Part shown: positions 10,771 through 62,145 of the stretch, one piece after another
Numbering within the stretch: position 1 is the first letter of the stretch
Layout: each line of letters starts with the position of its first letter
Translations under genes and position numbers: made by a program
Notes under the pieces: model-generated
Database searches by the model: none
What the model saw: the letters and a program-made list of their open reading frames with translations, nothing else
What the model was told of the DNA's origin: nothing
Source: Mobula hypostoma
Lineage: Eukaryota
Direction of reading: 5' to 3'
Assembly (NCBI RefSeq): GCF_963921235.1
Contig: NC_086108.1
Location: 91,266,001 to 91,330,000, forward strand
Length of the DNA: 64,000 nt

Positions 10771-11297
10771 CTACCTACTGCCCATTCTGCCGCTGGAGTT
10801 TAAAACAGCAATGAAAGTCTTCCATCTCTGGTGGTGTTCAGGGCTTCCTTCATCTTGTCAGTAACTTCTCAGTTTTCACTACTGTCAGTCAGTGATTCAA
10901 GAACAGCTTCGTCCCCTCTGCCATCCGACTCTCAAATGGACATTGAGCCCACGAACATGATTTTTAATCTATTCAATATAGATATACCATGTTTGATTTA
11001 CTTATTTATTTACTTTAACTTTTTTTCTTCTATATTATGTACCGTATTGAACTGCTGCTGCTATGTTAACAAATTTCGTGACACATGCCGGGGCTAATAA
11101 AAGTCCCAGGTGAAGATTCAGGAATACCATCGCACACAGATGTAGAAGGATTCTCCATTGCTGTTTCCATAACAGTTTTGTTTTACCAGCCAAGGTTGTT
11201 AGCCCTGAGCCTGGAAGACCGAGAGACCACTCTTAATTTGGCCTCTACCCTTCAATCTGTTTGGCATGGGTGACCCTACCAAGAGCCAAAGCATAAA
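10771..11297 (-). mobile_element. RTE-derived non-autonomous element (5' leader fused to 3' end), split by a Rex-type tail at about 10892-11102
   Basis: The leader (ggtagggtcacccatgccaaacag) matches 11865-12020. The 3' end encodes an RTE-like C-terminus, RWKTFIAVLNSSGRMGSR*. Confidence 0.65.
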
Positions 11298-11774
11298 TAT
11301 GATATTCTGCATGTATAATAAATGAGGGTATACCTTGTCAATGTGGTGAATGGATTTACCAGCATGACAGTTGAGGAAATCTATGGAATCCACCAACACA
11401 TTGGAAGTGTCCTGTGATTGCTGTTCTGCTGTGTGGAAGGATGAGGGAAGCTCAGTGAAAAAAGAAATGGTGAACACACCTGAAGAGTGTGGAAGGAGAA
11501 ATAGAAGGGAAAAAAGGAGGGAGAATTTGAAACAAAGAAACATGTTAGATATATTCAATATTTATTACACAACCACAATGGCATCAAGAAATAATAAGGT
11601 CAGATTCTTTGAGTAGAAAGCTTTGATAATAACTTTAAAAATATCAAGAGTCTTTTATAAAGTGGTGGGGGGTGCTCTAGAAAATAGGCCCCACTGAGCC
11701 ACATAGGCCTCCAAACCCCACGACAGGGTTGTGGTCCTCTTGGAAGCTGTAAACCATCAGTACTGAACTCTCTG

Positions 11775-12110
11775 TTATGGCCTCCAAGAGGACCACACCT
11801 TGTCACAGGGATTTCAGGCTTGCATGCCTCAATGACCCAGAGATCTACGTTGGCTGGAGTCAGGGTCTTGTGCTTTGGCTCATGGTAGGGTCACCCATGC
11901 CAAACAGGTCAAAGGGCAGAGGCCTGACTAAGTGTGGTCCATTGATGTTCCAGGTTCAGGGGTTTGGCTCAGGGCTAACAACCCTAATTGGTCAAAAAAA
12001 AAATTGTTACGGAAACAGCAAAAAATGCAGCATAATAGGCAGAAACTAACTTGATGGTTTCTGGGTAGGACCCTTCCAGGATGAATTGTGTCAGGAGTTA
12101 TTAATATCAA
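11775..12110 (+). mobile_element. RTE/BovB-like 5' leader
   Basis: ggaccacaccttgtc...ggcttg..ctcaatga...cacccat..acaggtc...gtgtggtcca resembles RTE/BovB 5' UTRs. An inverted partial copy lies at 11688-11752. Confidence 0.6.
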
Positions 12111-15537: not shown

Positions 15538-15683
15538 ATCCTCTTTTCAGACACCACCGTCAGAGAGTCCAGTTCCATCCCCACAACATCACTGGCCTTA
15601 CGAATGAGTTTGTTGATTCGTAAGGCCAGTGATGTTGTGGGGATGGAACTGGACTCTCTGGCAGTGGTGTCTGAAAAGAGGAT
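15538..15683. repeat. Fold-back inverted duplication (68-bp arms, 10-nt loop)
   Basis: 15538-15605 is the reverse complement of 15616-15683 with two substitutions. Confidence 0.95.
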
Positions 15684-32669: not shown

Positions 32670-33331
32670 TAAATCTGTTGGGATTATCTACTATTTTTGG
32701 TGCTCCCGGTGTGGCCTCCTGTATATCGGTGACACCCAACGTAGATTGGGAGAGTGCTTTGTGGAGCACGTACGCTCCATCCGCCAAAAAAGTAGGACCT
32801 TCCAGCGTTCACCCATTTCAATTCTACTTCTCATTCTATCCTACTGCCACAATAAGGCCACAATCACAAGGTTGGAGGAGCAATATCTTATGTTCCGTCT
32901 TGGTAGCCTCCAACCATGAACATCAATTTCTCGAATTTCTGGTAATTTGCCCCCCCACCCTTCTCCTTCACCATTCCCTATTCTCATTTCTCTCTTTCAC
33001 GTTATCTCTTTACCTGCCCATCACCTCCTTCTGTTGCTCCTCCACCATACCTTTCTTCCATGGCCTTCTGTCCTCTCCTAACAGATTCCCCCTTCTCCTG
33101 CCCTATTTCTTTCACCAATTGACTTCCCAGCACTCTAATTCACCCGGGGAGCCTCCTCCTGGTTTCACATATCACCTTGTACCTCTTCCTCTTCTCACCC
33201 ACCTTCTTACACTGACTTCTAACCTCTTTTTTCCCAATCCTGATGAAGGGTTTCAGGCCAAATATCATCTGTTTTACTCTTTTCCATAGATGCTGCTTGG
33301 CCTGCTGAGTGCCTGCAGCATTTTGTGTGTA
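32670..33331 (+). mobile_element. Penelope-like element 3' part (GIY-YIG plus pLTR with degenerate hammerhead) inserted in an old CR1 (about 32500-34360)
   Basis: GIIY..WCSRCGLLYIGDT.RRLGECFVEH..RLEEQ..FRLGSLQP. CTGATGAAGGG at 33240. gatgctgc..cctgctgag terminus. Confidence 0.88.
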
Positions 33332-37990: not shown

Positions 37991-38087
37991 TGGGGGAGGA
38001 AGGCGGTGGAACGGTCACCAATGAGAATCTGAAAATGCTTTCCTATTTGTCATCAGAAGCTAAATGAAGATCAACTGACAGGGATGA

Positions 38088-38302
38088 TAAACAAGGGATT
38101 CTTCAGATGCTGGAAATTCTGAGCAACATATCCAAAATGCTGGAAGAACTCAGCAAGTCAGGCATCATCTATGGAGGGGTATCACCAGTCAACGTTTCAG
38201 ACTAAGAACCTGATGAAGGGTCTTGGATTAAAACATCATATGTTTATTCCTCACTGTAGATGGTGCCTGACTTGCTGAGTTCCTCCAGAATTTTGTGTGT
38301 GC
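38088..38302. mobile_element. Palindromic Penelope-derived mini-element (older copy)
   Basis: aaaatgctggaagaactcagcaagtcaggca..tgcctgacttgctgagttcctccagaatttt inverted arms around CTGATGAAGGG. Same layout as 59589-59810. Confidence 0.8.
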
Positions 38303-39324
38303 AGCTAAAAGTGATGTTAAGGTAATACCAATATGCGCAGGTATACAATACCTCGGCTCTCTAAAATGCATTGCTGGTCTCGTTTATAATCCTTAACGGG
38401 TACTGGCCTATTGCCAGCAGCCCAGCTGTTCCATAGACAGTGAGAAGGCAACGGAGCCTTAATCTATTTCGAGAAAAGCAGCTTCGATTGCTGGGTTTGT
38501 GCACAAGAGATGACATGACAGCTGGCAAAATAGCAAAGGTTGTCTGTACATCATTTGCTGTGCATGGAACTTCAGTTTTCCGGTGGTACCAAAATACTTC
38601 TCTGTGTTTTTTTTAAAAAAATCTTTTGACTCGTTTTAAAATGTAAACCAGGGCAATCTTAGCACATAAATAAATAATGGCATACATTCTTGTCTGACAG
38701 TGCTGTAGACTAGGAAGGAGAAGGGCCTTCAGTCACTGCTTCCTGATGTGTGTGCTTAATAATTAAATAGAGAGCAGCGTTCAATGTATTGTAGCACGTT
38801 ACCTTGAGCAGCTTTTCCTCTGTTTCCCACTTGAGAGGTTTTTTTATCTCACAGATCAGAGTTTTGGTTTCAGATGAGTGAGTCTACAAACAAAAACTAA
38901 GCTCATGTTGGCCGTTATGATTACTGCGCCAGAATCAATGATGAATATCAATGAACTAAGACTTACTAGCTGATGGCAATGTTTCAGTGGATTTGATAGC
39001 CATTTGTGCAGATGGTTTCCAAGGATGAATCAGTGTGGGTTTTGTACCAGTTGAACGTTGCTACCCTTCACTATTCCAGTTCAGTAATTGAAGGATGCAG
39101 AGTTGGACAACACTTTCTGCATACTTTCTAAATATCAATTACAATTTTACAGTCTTGTTAGGATTCAAATAAAGTTGAAAGTATTGAAGACTCCGAGCAG
39201 ATGAGGAAGATTGTGAACATAACAACCTCTTAAGCAAGAGATACGTGTGATCATGAAATGAAACAAAATAGCACAAGTTATGCAAAGGTGTGGAACCCCA
39301 GTCTAATTCCATGGCATAAGTTTA

Positions 39325-45845: not shown

Positions 45846-46704
45846 TGTGATCAGCATGTGGTCTCACTGGCCATAAATAGCCAGCAGGAGACACTGGAGA
45901 TGCCGGAATTGGGAGCAACATACAAAAAAGCAGGTGAAACTCGACGGGTCAAGTAGCATCTACGGAGGGAAATGGGCAGTCAGTGTTTCAGGTTGAGTCC
46001 GTCCATTTATATGGGCAGCAGTTAAGTTCTGTTTCAGATGACTGATGAGGGTTGGAAGCAGGTGCCTGAGGATGAAGATCATTAAGCTTATGCTGGTAGA
46101 TGTCCCTGACATCCCAGGTGAAATTCGAAAGTGGAATAGGGTGGGAGATAGGGGGGATAGAGGATGCATCCCCTTCTTTGCACAGAGGTTTGCATGGAAA
46201 CTGCAACCATCCTATTCAGAGTGAAAATGATGGACCTGCATTCAGCACTGCTTCACACGGTATCATGTAGCTTTTAATGACTGGGTTCTTTGCATCTGCT
46301 ACAGAACAAAGGGAAGCCACCCAATGGTACCGCATCTGCAGTTTTGCATGCAGCATGTGGTAAGTCTCTATGAGTACATCTTTGGAGATTACCAGTCACA
46401 ACCTTCACTGTGCTTCTGGAAGGGAAATATCTCCTAGGTCTCTTAACAGTTGATTTTTTGGGCCGTTTCCCTCCAATAGGTGCTGTTTGACTTGCTGAGT
46501 TTCCCTAGCATTTTGTATACGTTCCTCAAAATTTCCAGCTTCTGCAGAATCTCTTGTGTCCTAGGCCTGTACCTTGAACCACATGTTAGGGAACCATTGG
46601 ATTAACAATGAAGCACAATTTCCCACAATGACAGGGATCCCTTGAGGCTCAGCAACGATCTGTAGGATGGTACCTGCCACAACAATTCTTCAACTCAATT
46701 CTTA

Positions 46705-53724: not shown

Positions 53725-54200
53725 AGAACAATGAACAAAATGCAGCAGGTCAAGCGATATCTGGAAATGTACAGTTGACATTGAATTGAGACCCTTTATC
53801 TGCCGGCATAAAGAGATGAGGAAATGGAGTGGGGAAGTGTGATAGATAGATGGAGGAACAGAGAGTGGAAATAGCAACAACAATGGTGGAGGCAACACAA
53901 GGCTGGATATGATGGAATCTGGTAGGAAAGGAAGGTGGAGCATGGTATCAATTAAGGAAGGTGAAGTGGGCAGATGGGAACAGGAGCGGGAAGCGTGTGA
54001 CTGATGTTCAAGTCTATAGGGTGGAGAGGAGAGAGAAGGAGAAAGGAACGAGGTGATGGGAAGCAGGAACAGGTGGAACTGGGTAAATCTGGAGGAGAGA
54101 GAAAAAGGGCAGTGGGAAGCAGTTTTCCTGAAATTGGAGAGTTCAACTTTTATGCTCTCAGGTTGTAGATTAGCCAGACGGGGTATGAGGTATTGGCCAT
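53725..54200 (-). mobile_element. Degenerate Penelope-like 3' part
   Basis: rc encodes LIPRLANLQPESIKVELSNFR (GIY-YIG C-terminus), followed by a pyrimidine-rich UTR and a pLTR remnant. Confidence 0.6.
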
Positions 54201-55123
54201 CTCCTTTAGCTTCACTCTATCATACTAGGCATGAAAGCTCAGAAGAAATGACCCATTTCTGTCAGAGCCACTTGCCAATGATTGCAAAATTATGACAGAT
54301 GTACCAAAAAGAAAATGATCAACAATGCATAACATTCTATCAAGTTTTGCAGAGAACTCTTGTCACAAGGCAAATTAATTGTTATAATAAGTAAACTGCA
54401 AATCCATTTTTATCAGTTTTTTTCCTGTCCCAGAAAATAATGGATAGCACATTGGACAAAGGGAAAATGCTGCAGATGTTGAAAGCCTGAAATAGAGTTT
54501 AATTTCAATTTCTGCACAAGTTCCAAATTCCTTTCTCTTCAACTAGATCCAACACTGCCTTCTGCATGAAGCAATAGTTTACTTTCAACGTGAGGCAGTT
54601 TGACTCAGTTTGTTGTTTGGGACTTCAGTGATTCCAGTCCATTGAATGTTATTCCTATTAATATTCTAATGAACCTTTAACTCCTTGTTTTAGATAGTAG
54701 CTGATAAAATAGTAAATTCTCCAGTGAACCTGGTCATTTTAAAGGGAGCTTGGGAAACAAGATGTGAATAGAGGGCTAGGCGAGGATCCAGTGCTGGAGT
54801 TTCCAAGTCTAGAATCAACACTGAGATGAGAACAGGGTTCTTGACTAGATGCTAGACAAGAAACTGATGTCACTAGATGAGAATCCAAAACAAGACAGAA
54901 ATCCTAAATGCAAATACAGACTAAACCAAAGTTGAGCTGATGATTGAGCACCGAACCTAGGTTCAGGTGCTCTTTAACTATCCAAATCTTGGCGCCAAAA
55001 CATGGCTGCCAATTAGTGGAGCAGGATAGAATCTTTAAAGGATTCATACTCCAGGGAATCAGAGCATCTAAACCCTGAAGGCTGGTGCAGTCGCGTGCAC
55101 ACCGTGGCACAAGAAGATGGTGG

Positions 55124-56949: not shown

Positions 56950-57800
56950 ACCTCAGCAAAGGAAGAACCCAAGGCTGGATACAGTAAGATGTAGACAACA
57001 TCAGGCTGCTGATAAGAGACAAGTAACATCCATTTCCCCAAAGTATTAGCCAGTTGCTACCCCCAACTAAACAATGTCTTACCAGCTGTTCCAGACACAC
57101 AATAGCTTTACCATCATGTCTCCCCGCTATAAATACCCTGAAGATAGCCATTGACAGAAATTCAACTAGACTAGCCACGTGAAAACTCTAATGCAAGAGA
57201 AAGTCAGAGACAGGGTATCCTGTGACAAATAACTCAACCCTTGATGGGCTGAAACATTTCTGTATTTAAAAGGCATAAATCAGGTGTGTGATGGAATACC
57301 TCTCACTTGCTTGGATGACTGCAAAGCTAAAACTCTCCAAAGGTTTGACACAATCCATAATAAGAACCCAACAACCAATTTAAAAATTCATTCTCTTCAT
57401 CATCAATGTATGGTGGATGAATTTAAGAGACAAGGAAGACCATTATTGCTGGAATATGGAACAAAGGTTAAACTGCTAGAAGAACTCAGCTGGTCAGTCA
57501 GTATCTATGGAGGCAAAGGGATGATCATCGTATCATCTCAAAACGTTGACCATTCTGTTCTTTGCAGATATCTCCATATCTTCAGCTTCAACCACCAAGA
57601 AGAGCAAAGGAGGCAATACTACAGCAGCACCACCAACTGCAGGTTCCTCTCCAAGCCATTTACCGTCGAGATTTGAGAAATCACCATTTATGCTGGGTCC
57701 AAATCCTGGAAATCTGAACCCAGCAACATTGTGAGCCCCTTCATCAGGACCACTGCAGTTCAAAACAGTGGCTCACCAGCTCATTCTCAAGGCTGGATAA
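56950..57800 (+). mobile_element. Ancient CR1/L2-group LINE 3' remnant with a Penelope pLTR piece (about 57455-57575)
   Basis: 3' end ctgcagttcaaaacagtggctcacc..ttctcaagg matches 15098-15140. gaagaactcagctggtcag pLTR motif. Confidence 0.5.
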
Positions 57801-59221
57801 TAACTTCTCCTTTTTTAGAGCCTAAAAAAGAATTAAAAACACAATGCACGGGTTATCCCGAAGTAACCAGGTAAGCAGCTGTAAGCTTATTTGTCTTTCA
57901 GTTCTTAAGCACCTCCAATGTACTGCAATCCTGCTGCCTTTTCCTGGATGAATTGGTTCAAACTTAGGAAAACTGTCTGAATGAAGATAATGCAAAATTT
58001 TCAATTATTTTCTTTTCTTAATGAGCTATCAAATTAGAAATCCTCCTCTCCCAACGGGCTTGTCCTGATACTTTGGATGTCATTTTCCACCCATTTAACT
58101 TCTGATCTAGTTCTAAATGTAGATGCTTGCTGGACTTAAAATTCAGGACATAGTTTTTGATGAAAAGCAATTCATAGGAGATTGCACAAACTACTGAGCA
58201 ATTAACTAGAAGATATGAATCATTTTAAAATGGAAAAACGAGGAACCTGCATAAATGGGCATGAATGCAGAGGAGGGGGAGCAAGATTCATTCAAGATAA
58301 GGTAGTTGTAAAAGAAATTTAAAGGAGAAGATACTAGGAGTATTTAGCGGGCCACAGACCATCTTTGGAGTAGATAACTGAATTAATGTTAAGATATTGT
58401 CCTGTATTGCATTCTACCATTCCCTTTGAAATAGCTGACCAACAAAATTAATTGCAACACACACAAAATGCTGGCCAGGCAGCATCTATGGGAAAGAGTG
58501 AACAGTCAATGTTTTGGACCAAGACCCTTCGCCGGGACTGGAAAAGAAGAGGAGAAGTCAGAGCAAGAAGGTGGAGGGAGGGGAGGAAGAAGTACAGGGT
58601 GGTGGGTGATAGGTGAAAATGGGAGAGCGAGAGAGAGTGAAGTACAGAGCTGGGAAGTTGATTGTGAAGGAGAAAACGTGCTGGAGAACCGGAAAAAAAT
58701 CACTCCCTCATCCACGCGCAAAAGCAATGCACAAACAGTAAGAAGAACATCACACCCCTCCCCCATGTGCAAAAAAACACTGTGCAAGCAGCAACAAGAG
58801 CATCAAATCCCCCCCCACCCCCACCGCCACTCCCAGCACAAAAAAATAAACAAATGGTGCAAACGGGAACAAGAAAGAACGTGCGAAAACACAGAATTCA
58901 AGAACATAAAACTAAGAGAGATGAAGTGAACTACAGTCCAATCCATAAACTGCAGATCCAGAAATTCAGTACCATCCTCTGACAGCATGGAGGGAGAGAG
59001 AGACCATTCAAATGCAGGGGCCCTCCTTCAGGAGCAGCGAGTGAGAGACCGTCACACACAGACACCTTCCTCGCTCAGCAGCCAGAGAGAGGCTGGTTGA
59101 CGGCGCTGAACACTCGCTCTCCTTCTGCACTCACCTCAGTGTTTCAACCTTCCTCGATGCTTTCACTCACAACACGCTGGAGGAACTCAGCTGGTCAGGC
59201 AGCATCCGTGGAAAAGAGCGG

Positions 59222-59254
59222 TCAACATTTCGGGCCGGAACCCTTCGTCAGGAC
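59222..59254 (-). ncRNA. Minimal type I hammerhead ribozyme motif
   Basis: rc: gtc CTGACGA aggg ttccgg ccc GAAA tGTT gac. Both core boxes are intact and stem I is 3 bp. Confidence 0.6.
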
Positions 59255-59588
59255 TGTAGAGGGAAGGGGCAGAGGCCCTATAAAGAAGGTGGGGGGAGGG
59301 TGGGAGGGAGAAGGCTGGTAGGTTCCAGGTAAAAAACCAGTAAGGGGAAAGATCAAGGGGTGGGGGTGGGGAAACAGGGAGGGGATGGGCAGGAAAGGTG
59401 AAGAAGGAATAGGGGAAAACACAATGGGTAGTAGAAGGAGGCGGAACCATGAGGGAGGTGGTAGGCAGCTGGGGGAGGGGGCAGAGTGAAATAGGGATAG
59501 GGGAAGGGAGGGGGAGGGAATTACCAGAAGTTGGAGAATTTTATGTTCATGTCAAGGGGCTGGAGACTACCTAGACTGTATATGAGGT

Positions 59589-59810
59589 AAACAACAGGAA
59601 TTCTGCAGATGCTGGAAATTCAAGCAACACACATAAAAGTTGCTGGTGAACGCAGCATCTCTAGGAAGAGGTGCAGTCGACGTTTCAGGCCGAGACCCCT
59701 TGTCAGGACTAGGTCCCGACGAAGGGTCTCGGCCTGAAACGTCGACTGCACCTCTTCCTAGAGATGCTGCCTGGCCTGCTGCGTTCACCAGCAACTTTTA
59801 TGTGTGTTGC
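59589..59810. mobile_element. Palindromic Penelope-derived mini-element with two inverted hammerhead motifs
   Basis: 13-bp TSD CTGTATATGAGGT at 59576-59588 and 59811-59823. Inverted arms span 59624-59810. Motifs at 59679-59706 (-) and 59716-59743 (+). Confidence 0.92.
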
Positions 59811-60225
59811 CTGTATATGAGGTGTTGCTTCTCCAACCTGAGTTTAGACTCATCATGGCAGTAGAGGAGGCTATGCATGGACATATCTGAATGGGAATGG
59901 GAAGCAGAGTTGAAGTGGGTGGCAACCGGGAGATCCTGTCTGTTGTGGCGGATGGAGCTTTAATCGGCGAGATTGGCGAGAAATGGAGGCGACCAGTCTC
60001 TAAGCTTCTAGGTTTTGAGGCTTCTCACCTCTTAGAATCTCCTCAGAGACAGCAAAGTGACTGATCGCTCAATGATCTTCAAACTGTAGATCACAGACTC
60101 TAATGGTACCGGAAACACACTTAAAATAAAAAGGAGACGTACGAGAAGTGAAAGAAGCAGTTTCATGGACTATCTGCAAGATGTCGCCTGAGATAGCATT
60201 TTTCATTGACTCCATCTTGACCAGA

Positions 60226-62145
60226 GTTCAAGTTCTAGTTCATTTTATTGGCATTCAAGTGTATACATGGATACTGCAAAAAGAAGCAACGGTTACCCAG
60301 ACCAAAGTGCACAACATTTTACATATAACTCACACAAAACACATAAAGTAATATTACCACAAATAACTTAACAAATAATAAGGTGCAATTAGAACACATG
60401 TTAAAAAGTAAACAGCGTATCACTATTGGCGCTCCATGTGTGATGTGACTTGGGTAGTTGCAGGGAGCTCAGTAGTTTTACAGCCTGGGGAAAGAAGCTA
60501 TTTCCCATCCTAACAGTTCTTGTCCTACGGTACCTCCTGCCTGATGAGAGGGGGTCAAAAAGATTGTCGGACAGATGGGAGGGATTATTGACAATGCTAA
60601 AGACCTTGCATATGCAATGCTCCTGATAAATATCTCTGATGGGTGGAAGAGAGACCCCGATGATCCTCTCGGCACTCTTGTAGGGACTTGTAGGGACTTG
60701 AGGTCAGATGCCTTGCAATCCCTGTACCAGATGATGATGCAGCTGGTCAAGACACTCTCAATAGTGCTCCTGTAGAAATTGGTTAGAATGGGGTGGGAGA
60801 ACTTTCCACAGAAAGTGGAGACACTGCTGAGCTTTCTTGACCAACGAGATGGCGTTCAGGAACCAGGTGATGTCGGTTATGTGCACTCCCAGAAACTTGG
60901 TGTTCCTAACTTGCTCCACAAGAGAGGCATGTACGTGCAGTGAGGAGCGGTCAGCCTGAACCTTTCTAAAGTCCACAGTTGTTTCTTTAGTCTTGTCCAC
61001 GTTGAGACTCAGGTTGTTGTGCTCACCCCATTCTGCTAGCTGCGCTACCTCCTCTCTGAACATCACCTTGCCGTCGTTGTTGATGACCCAACTACTGTTG
61101 GGTCATCAGCAAACTTCTTTCTTTCTTTTTAAATCTTTTTATTGAATAAGTATACAAAAAGGTAAGCCATATATAGGCACTAATACACTGTTAGAATATA
61201 ATAAAATTACAGAAGATATTAATACAAAAAAAATGATACAAACAATGTAATTTAAACATAACGTACCAAGGTAACATAATAGTATACTAATTTTTATATA
61301 TATATCAATAGAGAAAAGGAAAAAAAATCCCCAAAAAAACCCACCGTGCAACTAACTAAAAGCAAAGCAAAGCAATGGGCTAACTTGAAACCAAACAGAG
61401 TTAAAAAGAACTTAAAATCACGTCCTCAATCCCGACCTCCATTAAAAACAGTAAAAAAACAAGAAGGGTATATATTACATTAAATGAAAATATTGAATAA
61501 AAGATCTCCAAGTCTGTTCAAATTTAAATGAGGAGTCATAAAGATTGCTTCTAATTTTCTCCAAATTCAAGCATAATATCGTCTGAGAAAACCAAAAAAA
61601 GGTAGTTGGAGCATTAAGCTCTTTCCAATGTTGTAAGATACATCTTTTCGCCATTAAAGTAAGAAATGCAATCATTCTACGGGCTGAAGGGGAAAGATTA
61701 CTGGAATCAGCAAACTTGATGATTCAGTTTGAACTGGATCGAGCAGCGCAGTCATGTGTCAGCAGCGCGAATAACAGCGGGCTGAGTACACAGCCCTGGG
61801 AGGCACCAGTGCTCAGTATGATGGAGCTAGAGATGTTTCTGCAACACGGACTAACTTTGGCCCTTCTGTCAAGAAGTCCGGGATCTAGTTACAGTTGAGA
61901 CCCAATGAGGACGGTTTATGTTTCAGCTTCTGAAGGATGATCATAATAAACACTGAACTGAAATCGATAAACAGCATCCTGCATACGAGGCATCGTTTTC
62001 CAGGTGGGAAGGATGGAGTAGAGTGCAGAGGCTATGACATCATCAGTGGACTGATTTGAGTGATAGGCAAACTGGAAAGGGTCCAATGTAGCAGGAAGAT
62101 GGGATTTAATGCAATCCATAACTAGCCACTCAAAGTACTTCATTT
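60226..62145 (-). mobile_element. Rex1/Babar RT and 3' region split by L1
   Basis: MKYFEWLV..LDPFQFAY, LSLNVDKTKE..VDFRK, KFLGVHI. KFADD is split by the insertion. Confidence 0.8.
61117..61705 (-). mobile_element. 5'-truncated L1-clade LINE
   Basis: L1 ORF2 C-terminus (AKRCILQHWK..LNLEKI..FEQTW). AATAAA plus A-rich tail. 12-bp TSD ATCAGCAAACTT at 61105-61116 and 61706-61717. Confidence 0.88.

Follow-up and report, generated by a model that had tools for sequence, protein, structure and literature searches.

Penelope-like elements (PLEs) have characteristic insertions, and inverted pLTRs and short extensions are named as peculiarities of these elements in the available text of PMC8969392. The usual PLE insertion, as drawn in Fig. 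2 of PMC8557442, combines an inverted 5'-truncated copy with a tail of 30-40 bp at one end, and a tail of this length is described in the accessible parts of PMC8557442, PMC3846280 and PMC11167929. The corresponding sections of PMC3846280 give the head-to-head arrangement as the most frequent one and propose self-priming for palindromes at inverted junctions; an example from that source is Pen2a_Av of Adineta vaga, which has inverted pLTRs, a 31-bp tail and a 9-bp target-site duplication (TSD) and lies inside another Penelope. Biochemical results excerpted from PMC11167929 show that a purified PLE protein nicks and extends both target strands, that synthesis begins inside the RNA at two neighbouring sites, the distance between them being the tail, and that hammerhead cleavage is unnecessary for this reaction.

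The hammerhead ribozymes of these elements have been described separately. The metazoan PLE type-I minimal hammerheads covered by the available portion of PMC4209133 (Cervera and De la Pena 2014) have a short helix I of 4-5 bp, a bulge between positions 9 and 10.1, and a palindromic ACGU in place of helix III, and in Schistosoma dual motifs lie 100-700 bp apart on opposite strands. Protein-free relatives derived from PLE pLTRs and carrying type-I hammerheads, the non-LTR retrozymes, are reported in one chondrichthyan genome in the part of bioRxiv 10.64898/2026.07.22.740005 that was available. Among the papers listed by literature searches, none deals with palindromic mini-PLEs in sharks or rays. 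Here we describe a small palindromic insert from the ray Mobula hypostoma, compare it with these systems, and evaluate how it is likely to have formed.

Organization of the insert and its target

The insert occupies positions 59589-59810 (222 nt) of the window, by which we mean the whole 64,000-nt stretch of DNA that was analysed, and lies between two identical 13-mers. The features of the insert and of the element that it interrupts (the host) are listed below; P0001 and P0003 are Hypanus sabinus gene models and X14 is one of the sequencing runs considered later.

59168..59520, minus strand: 3' non-coding terminal repeat of the host, of another subfamily, with its own decayed hammerhead (C3 at 59251); ~78% like the insert in the hammerhead part
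59521..59586, minus strand: last 21 codons and stop of the host, downstream of the break; 17/20 residues identical to P0003 residues 359-378 (C-terminus)
59576..59588, plus strand: left TSD copy (host sequence), 13/13 identical to the right copy
59589..59623, minus strand: one-sided tail, the long 3' end of the element, 35 nt without a partner in the hairpin; 59589 is a common family end
59624..59709, minus strand: left arm, a 5'-truncated Penelope-like terminal repeat with its sense on the minus strand and a 12-nt deletion between 59657 and 59658
59674..59711, minus strand: minimal hammerhead; C3 at 59706, G8A at 59701, helix I 5 bp, helix II 4 bp, predicted cut after 59679
59710..59712, no strand: hairpin centre, a self-complementary TA common to both arms and one extra G; X14 contigs diverge past 59711
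59712..59747, plus strand: minimal hammerhead; C3 at 59716, U4C at 59717, helix I 4 bp, helix II 4 bp, predicted cut after 59743
59713..59810, plus strand: right arm, a 5'-truncated terminal repeat with its sense on the plus strand, ending at the short (tail-less) end; its counterpart 59624/59625 is a shared family end
59811..59823, plus strand: right TSD copy, 13/13 identical to the left copy
59813..59959, minus strand: host coding remnant upstream of the break, from the C-terminal portion of a Penelope-like endonuclease domain; over 48 aa, 83% identical to residues 384-431 of P0001

A short duplication thus surrounds the whole unit. Its word occurs twice in the 64-kb window when both strands are searched, with no occurrence on the other strand, and a match of this quality at a fixed place would arise by chance at ~2e-8. 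In other copies of the host family, contigs pass from 59588 directly into sequence resembling 59824 onward (84 contigs in run X1 and 55 in run X5), so the word is single in empty copies and the duplication is confirmed. The first 6 nt of the right copy (59811-59816) match the element's own continuation at 4/6 letters, and slight primer-template pairing at the short end is therefore possible.

Within the duplication, two head-to-head, 5'-truncated copies of a terminal repeat form a hairpin of 86 paired positions (59624-59709 with 59713-59810) around the 3-nt centre, with three mismatches and the remaining 83/86 identical. The left arm lacks 12 nt that are present at 59765-59776 of the right arm, and the gap falls between two TGCTGC repeats. 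The MFE of the insert is -171.8 kcal/mol (z = -18.9), a value that none of 200 shuffles equalled, and the tail of 35 nt stands at a single end (59589-59623). All three substitutions between the arms fall in 59699-59723, at most 11 nt from the hairpin tip, and the other 75 compared positions are identical; this clustering (post hoc P = 0.0016) hits both hammerhead cores. Neutral decay does not explain it, and error-prone joining or mutagenesis of the tip could. The sequence-only reading of this locus had already recognized the perfect 13-bp TSD, a hairpin with arms of about 85-95 bp, the 12-nt deletion of the left arm and one minimal hammerhead per strand with a core substitution in each (U4C on plus, G8A on minus). 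These features are borne out, and what that description overlooked is the 35-nt extension at 59589-59623.

In its head-to-head repeats, one-sided tail and short TSD, the insert resembles the inverted-pLTR PLEs such as Pen2a_Av (PMC3846280; PMC8557442, Fig. 2), and the microhomology-mediated deletion and the nesting in another Penelope are likewise described in the available parts of those two sources. The TSD is 13 bp here and 8-10 bp in the elements that they describe, and unlike those elements the insert has no ORF between its arms, both of which are shortened to ~100 nt; the whole insertion is thereby one hairpin. The two ends lie about one tail apart and roughly 90-135 nt downstream of the hammerhead, as for PAc, an Anolis Poseidon element characterized in vitro in the accessible sections of PMC11167929, for which both target strands are also extended and cleavage is unneeded; the host at our locus, unlike PAc, looks Neptune-like as judged by description. 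The motifs match the type-I minimal hammerheads of PMC4209133 in their helix I of 4-5 bp, bulge and palindromic ACGU, and differ from the dual motifs presented in that portion of the source in being directly adjacent, in the core change that each carries, and in having G10.1-U11.1 in both. Like the non-LTR retrozymes outlined in bioRxiv 10.64898/2026.07.22.740005, the insert is protein-free, derived from a PLE pLTR and equipped with type-I hammerheads, but the retrozymes there are head-to-tail tandems whose same-strand hammerheads allow cleavage and circles, whereas the insert is head-to-head with mutated motifs on opposite strands.

The host is a minus-strand element extending from about 59959 to 59168. 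It retains its last ~67 codons only, without the GIY-YIG motif, and on sequence comparison is a 5'-truncated Penelope-like remnant and not a gene; the "Penelope GIY-YIG gene" of the sequence-only reading is corrected accordingly. Pfam searches with the two host peptides (49 and 21 aa) gave no family, and homology was established by protein searches, one in which all four candidates were Hypanus sabinus gene models and another with 33 matches. GIY-YIG matches in the models themselves are weak and lie below the curated cut-off (P0001 residues 352-425, E 8e-4; P0003, E 2e-3). P0001 also contains RT-like motifs and a cysteine-rich linker of the CxxxCxxC type, and the host looks Neptune-like, a clade assigned by the description of the linker in PMC8557442, as available, applied to this relative and not by a tree. 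Models P0001-P0004, which bear names such as kinase-domain protein, mucin-2 and ATP synthase subunit, end in a PLE endonuclease peptide and are likely to be repeat-contaminated annotations or exonised fragments. As a TSD of the host itself, the best candidate matched at 6/7 nt and was not accepted.

Targeted insertion into an endonuclease gene is unsupported; the window contains several PLE remnants, and nesting is therefore unremarkable. Further decayed Penelope-like remnants lie at 32671-33330, 58453-58620, 57475-57511, 45894-45930, 46530-46550 and 54127-54216. The portion 32671-32916 matches P0001 residues 349-438 at 46%, and the copy at 58538 likewise has C at core position 4. Other repeats in the window include a near-perfect palindrome at 15538-15683 (68-nt arms, 97%, 10-nt spacer, no hammerhead motif), which resembles the result of a local inversion within another repeat, and a MITE-like segment of ~860 bp at 11158-12021 with long imperfect terminal inverted repeats (83-89%). 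Two minus-strand frames, 60401-61102 and 61100-61730, resemble what we take to be remnants of LINE reverse transcriptases.

Related copies and the parent element

A second, older palindrome of a related subfamily lies at 38090-38301 (38072-38320 of the window). It is a tailed head-to-head Penelope-like palindrome whose arms are 72% complementary, and it is bounded by a decayed duplication of ~19 bp (14/19; 13 of 2000 random pairs scored as well). Its left arm ends in helix II, without the CUGA core, and its right arm begins at C3, the two being joined by a 2-nt CC overlap; it has the architecture of the insert and a different centre. The turning points of both palindromes lie no more than ~15 nt from the 5' edge of the hammerhead, which suggests, with n = 2, a tighter placement than random truncation would predict. 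Both arms of the insert reach ~36 nt 5' of the cleavage site, which rules out turning at the cleavage site and indicates that the template was uncleaved.

Near these turning points, longer copies carry, immediately 5' of the hammerhead core, a splice-acceptor-like pyrimidine tract that terminates in CAG (59254-59300; 58539-58580, minus strand; 33200-33236, plus strand, with CAA there). A splice acceptor near the hammerhead is described for the Drosophila virilis Penelope in the text of PMC4209133 at hand.

The parent family was evaluated in contigs from public sequencing runs. Contigs of four of the 24 runs listed (X1, X5, X14 and X17) were aligned to 59500-59712 at 85% likeness, with 50,909, 33,828, 4,848 and 3,489 aligned pieces. 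X14 and X17 are guessed to be RNA and were taken as samples of sequence and not as evidence of transcription; contigs were read as presence only, and their summed depth was not taken as copy number. Position 59589 is a common family end with unrelated flanks in 574 X1, 522 X5, 79 X14 and 54 X17 contigs (agreement 0.41-0.43). Position 59624/59625, which matches the end of the right arm, is a second common end in 17 X14 and 7 X17 contigs. Past 59711, by comparison, 23 X14 contigs read through into different sequence, which marks the centre as a site of truncation instead of an end of the family. The arms are, as these alignments indicate, the last ~100-135 nt of a longer and very abundant element. 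Their likeness of ~78% to the end of the host, itself the remnant of a PLE with an endonuclease, also marks them as pieces of the 3' terminal repeat of such an element.

Strand changes make up 6 among the 15 joints listed of 20, leaving out of the count rows such as 59709/59673 and 59710/59680, for which the kind of joint was not stated. Four of these changes, again among the 15 listed of 20, touch the hammerhead part (59692-59710), namely 59633/59707, 59655/59697, 59656/59710 and 59657/59692; all are different, each has a depth of 8.7-13.7, and none is at the centre of the insert. In three of the four, the opposite side of the joint falls at 59655-59657, next to the deletion of the reference itself, and a bias from that deletion is possible. 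Loose ends are represented by 24 listed of 722, and symmetric centres are probably invisible to contig alignment, one side of the joint being too short. At 59589/59622, an opposite-strand joint (6 X1 and 8 X5 contigs; two species) brings the long, tailed end up against the short end with no intervening letters. It could reflect tandem palindromes, the junction of a circle, or an element that landed in an earlier copy, at the ATT immediately inward of that copy's tail. Exact-pattern scans of metagenome, prokaryote and viral collections gave 0 matches, as expected for a vertebrate repeat.

Formation of the hairpin

We consider the insert to be the product of a single integration, made via twin priming by an autonomous Penelope-like element with an endonuclease, and to be inert now, with a probability of about 0.6. 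The more general statement, that the hairpin was made at insertion by either twin priming or fold-back/self-priming, is very probably correct. In the proposed sequence of events, the endonuclease would nick both strands 13 nt apart, as the TSD implies, and each 3'-OH would prime reverse transcription on the element RNA. One cDNA would begin at the outer start site and yield the 35-nt tail, the other would begin at the inner start site and carry none, and both would come to a stop close to the 5' edge of the hammerhead, having copied ~100-135 nt. The two cDNAs would then be joined through the 2-nt TA microhomology with one extra G, and repair would fill the TSD. The hammerheads would be passengers of the terminal repeat, uncut in the event and mutated since. 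Twin priming, the microhomology joining and the absence of cleavage activity are the parts of this scheme that we infer. Both arms are observed in the orientation of first-strand cDNA heading inward from each end of the TSD.

In L1 twin priming, an inverted segment lies inside one TSD with a joint at short microhomology, the second primer annealing internally so that the segments do not overlap. The insert shares the inverted segment within one TSD and the short microhomology, and differs in that both of its arms copy the same terminal stretch. The PLE literature examined, in the parts available, gave no demonstration of twin priming in PLEs, and PMC3846280 favours self-priming.

The second arm could instead have been made in the same one-off, inert PLE insertion by self-priming or fold-back of one cDNA or RNA, or by a template switch. 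This route agrees with the self-priming that the accessible text of PMC3846280 invokes for palindromes at inverted junctions. The near-identity of the arms, whose common letters differ from the X1 consensus, would also follow from copying one arm from the other, and the clustered mismatches at the tip could be errors of a fold-back junction. Letters common to both arms can, however, be markers of a subfamily, and a fold-back through the TCAG/CTGA match around the centre, read from an X14 consensus that is weak (agreement 0.55), would not regenerate the GTC before the plus core. Twin priming, moreover, directly yields arms that use different family ends and that stop precisely where the TSD begins; we regard fold-back as an unlikely account of the second arm.

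Status as a mobile family

Improbable, in our estimation, is the proposal that the palindrome is itself non-autonomous, being transcribed by read-through and reinserted by Penelope proteins with fixed ends and a fixed centre. The insert retains the cis end with its tail, and the relevant sections of PMC3846280 indicate that pLTR sequences alone can mobilise cargo in trans. Two palindromes within 64 kb turn near the same motif, the 59589/59622 joints could be tandem palindromes, and the contig test is probably blind to symmetric centres. Fixed ends are nevertheless expected from the two RT start sites of the parent and do not prove a separate family, no promoter is evident, and an 86-bp duplex RNA would bury the template region. 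Heterogeneous ends and centres would mark independent inverted truncations of long Penelope elements, as the sequence-only reading had itself pointed out; the ends proved to be common, whereas the centres vary, both among the joints seen in the contigs and between the two palindromes of the window, with the proviso that symmetric centres would probably escape this comparison.

Neither of the established classes of small elements fits the insert. MITEs, which are derivatives of DNA transposons, have equal terminal inverted repeats and a TSD of fixed length. The arms of the insert are unequal by the tail and derived from a retroelement, and its TSD is 13 bp vs the decayed ~19 bp at 38090-38301. 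Instead of the head-to-tail tandem of a non-LTR retrozyme, with at least two complete hammerheads on the same strand, it has one motif per strand in inverted order. The earlier attribution of the insert to Penelope, with minimal dimer-type hammerheads and mobilisation by a Penelope RT/endonuclease, was right, the tail and inverted arrangement being the standard structure of a PLE insertion. Its further proposal of a distinct MITE/retrozyme-like unit is not supported, and the claim of a family is weakened, given arms that belong to the end region of a longer, abundant element and turning points that vary.

Catalytic potential of the hammerheads

The plus core reads CCGACGA from 59716 and the minus core CTGACAA from 59706, and each is followed by a bulge, the 4-bp helix II and GAAACGTC. 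Both motifs have the components of a minimal hammerhead, with helices I and II, the bulge and the palindromic positions 15.1-16.1 in the lack of a helix III, and the palindromic ACGU is kept in both. The intact core (C3 U4 G5 A6 N7 G8 A9, with G10.1-C11.1) is found in neither: U4C is present on the plus strand, G8A on the minus strand disrupts the C3-G8 pair, and G-U replaces G10.1-C11.1 in both. An Rfam search at the insert returned no hammerhead family, with 8 matches at E<=10 and none reaching the gathering score.

Folding calculations point in the same direction. Forcing the hammerhead fold on the full transcript carries a penalty of 56.5 (plus) and 62.9 (minus) kcal/mol, and just past the cut site the penalty is 54.0 (plus) and 49.5 (minus) kcal/mol; in the isolated arms, non-hammerhead folds are favoured by 4-7 kcal/mol. 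Since the antisense arm precedes the motif in transcripts of either strand, the complement is made first and would trap each hammerhead motif. Each transcript contains one motif, and dimers require two on the same strand. With G8A, U4C and G10.1-U11.1, ribozyme activity is predicted to be unlikely, and both self-cutting motifs look broken in this analysis. The claim that active ribozymes are produced from either strand is consequently not supported, given the mutated cores and the trapping complement.

A working double ribozyme or regulatory hairpin RNA, cleaving when transcribed from either strand, is thus very improbable. Helices I and II and the palindromic ACGU are retained, U4C reduces activity and is nonetheless tolerated in vivo in a viroid, where that variant is sufficiently active according to the available text of PMC3088659, and a PLE hammerhead can be protein-assisted (PMC11167929, in the portions cited). 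Against these points, the pair disrupted by G8A is one at which the single changes G8C and C3G each abolish cleavage of a PLE hammerhead in that part of PMC11167929. Minimal hammerheads, of which each strand here has a single one, showed no cleavage as monomers and low activity as dimers in the results seen from PMC4209133. The fold penalty amounts to 50-63 kcal/mol, and of the Xenopus retrozyme dimers reported in the accessible part of bioRxiv 10.64898/2026.07.22.740005, 1/9 cleaved and 8/9 did not. Scarcely credible is an assembly artefact from a folded read, to which one might ascribe that no contig among those listed spans the whole of 59500-59712, in view of arms that differ by a 12-nt deletion and three substitutions, a one-sided tail, a perfect TSD, and host sequence that resumes in register.

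Implications

We place the insert among the known inverted insertions of PLEs, of which it is a minimal case whose passenger hammerheads have decayed. It does not represent a novel type of element, and taken alone the locus carries little weight. If transcribed, its 86-bp duplex could be a substrate for ADAR or a Dicer-type enzyme. A broader reading, which we hold to be doubtful, is that in this lineage both cDNAs tend to stop at the 5' edge of the hammerhead, that palindromes of ~200 bp are made repeatedly, and that some are re-amplified as protein-free units with ribozymes inactivated at the tip. The RT might be stalled there by a ribozyme with bound protein, or the site might coincide with the 5' end of an RNA, an initiator or a splice acceptor. 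Were this true, a census of centres would be a direct genomic read-out of Penelope inverted-repeat formation.

As a class, stub-sized two-armed insertions constitute the simplest record of PLE integration, each displaying within 250 bp the two RT start sites, how far apart the nicks lay, and the join. The formation of PLE inverted repeats is still undefined in the available text of PMC8557442 and PMC3846280, and counting such insertions in a copy-rich genome could separate twin priming from self-priming.
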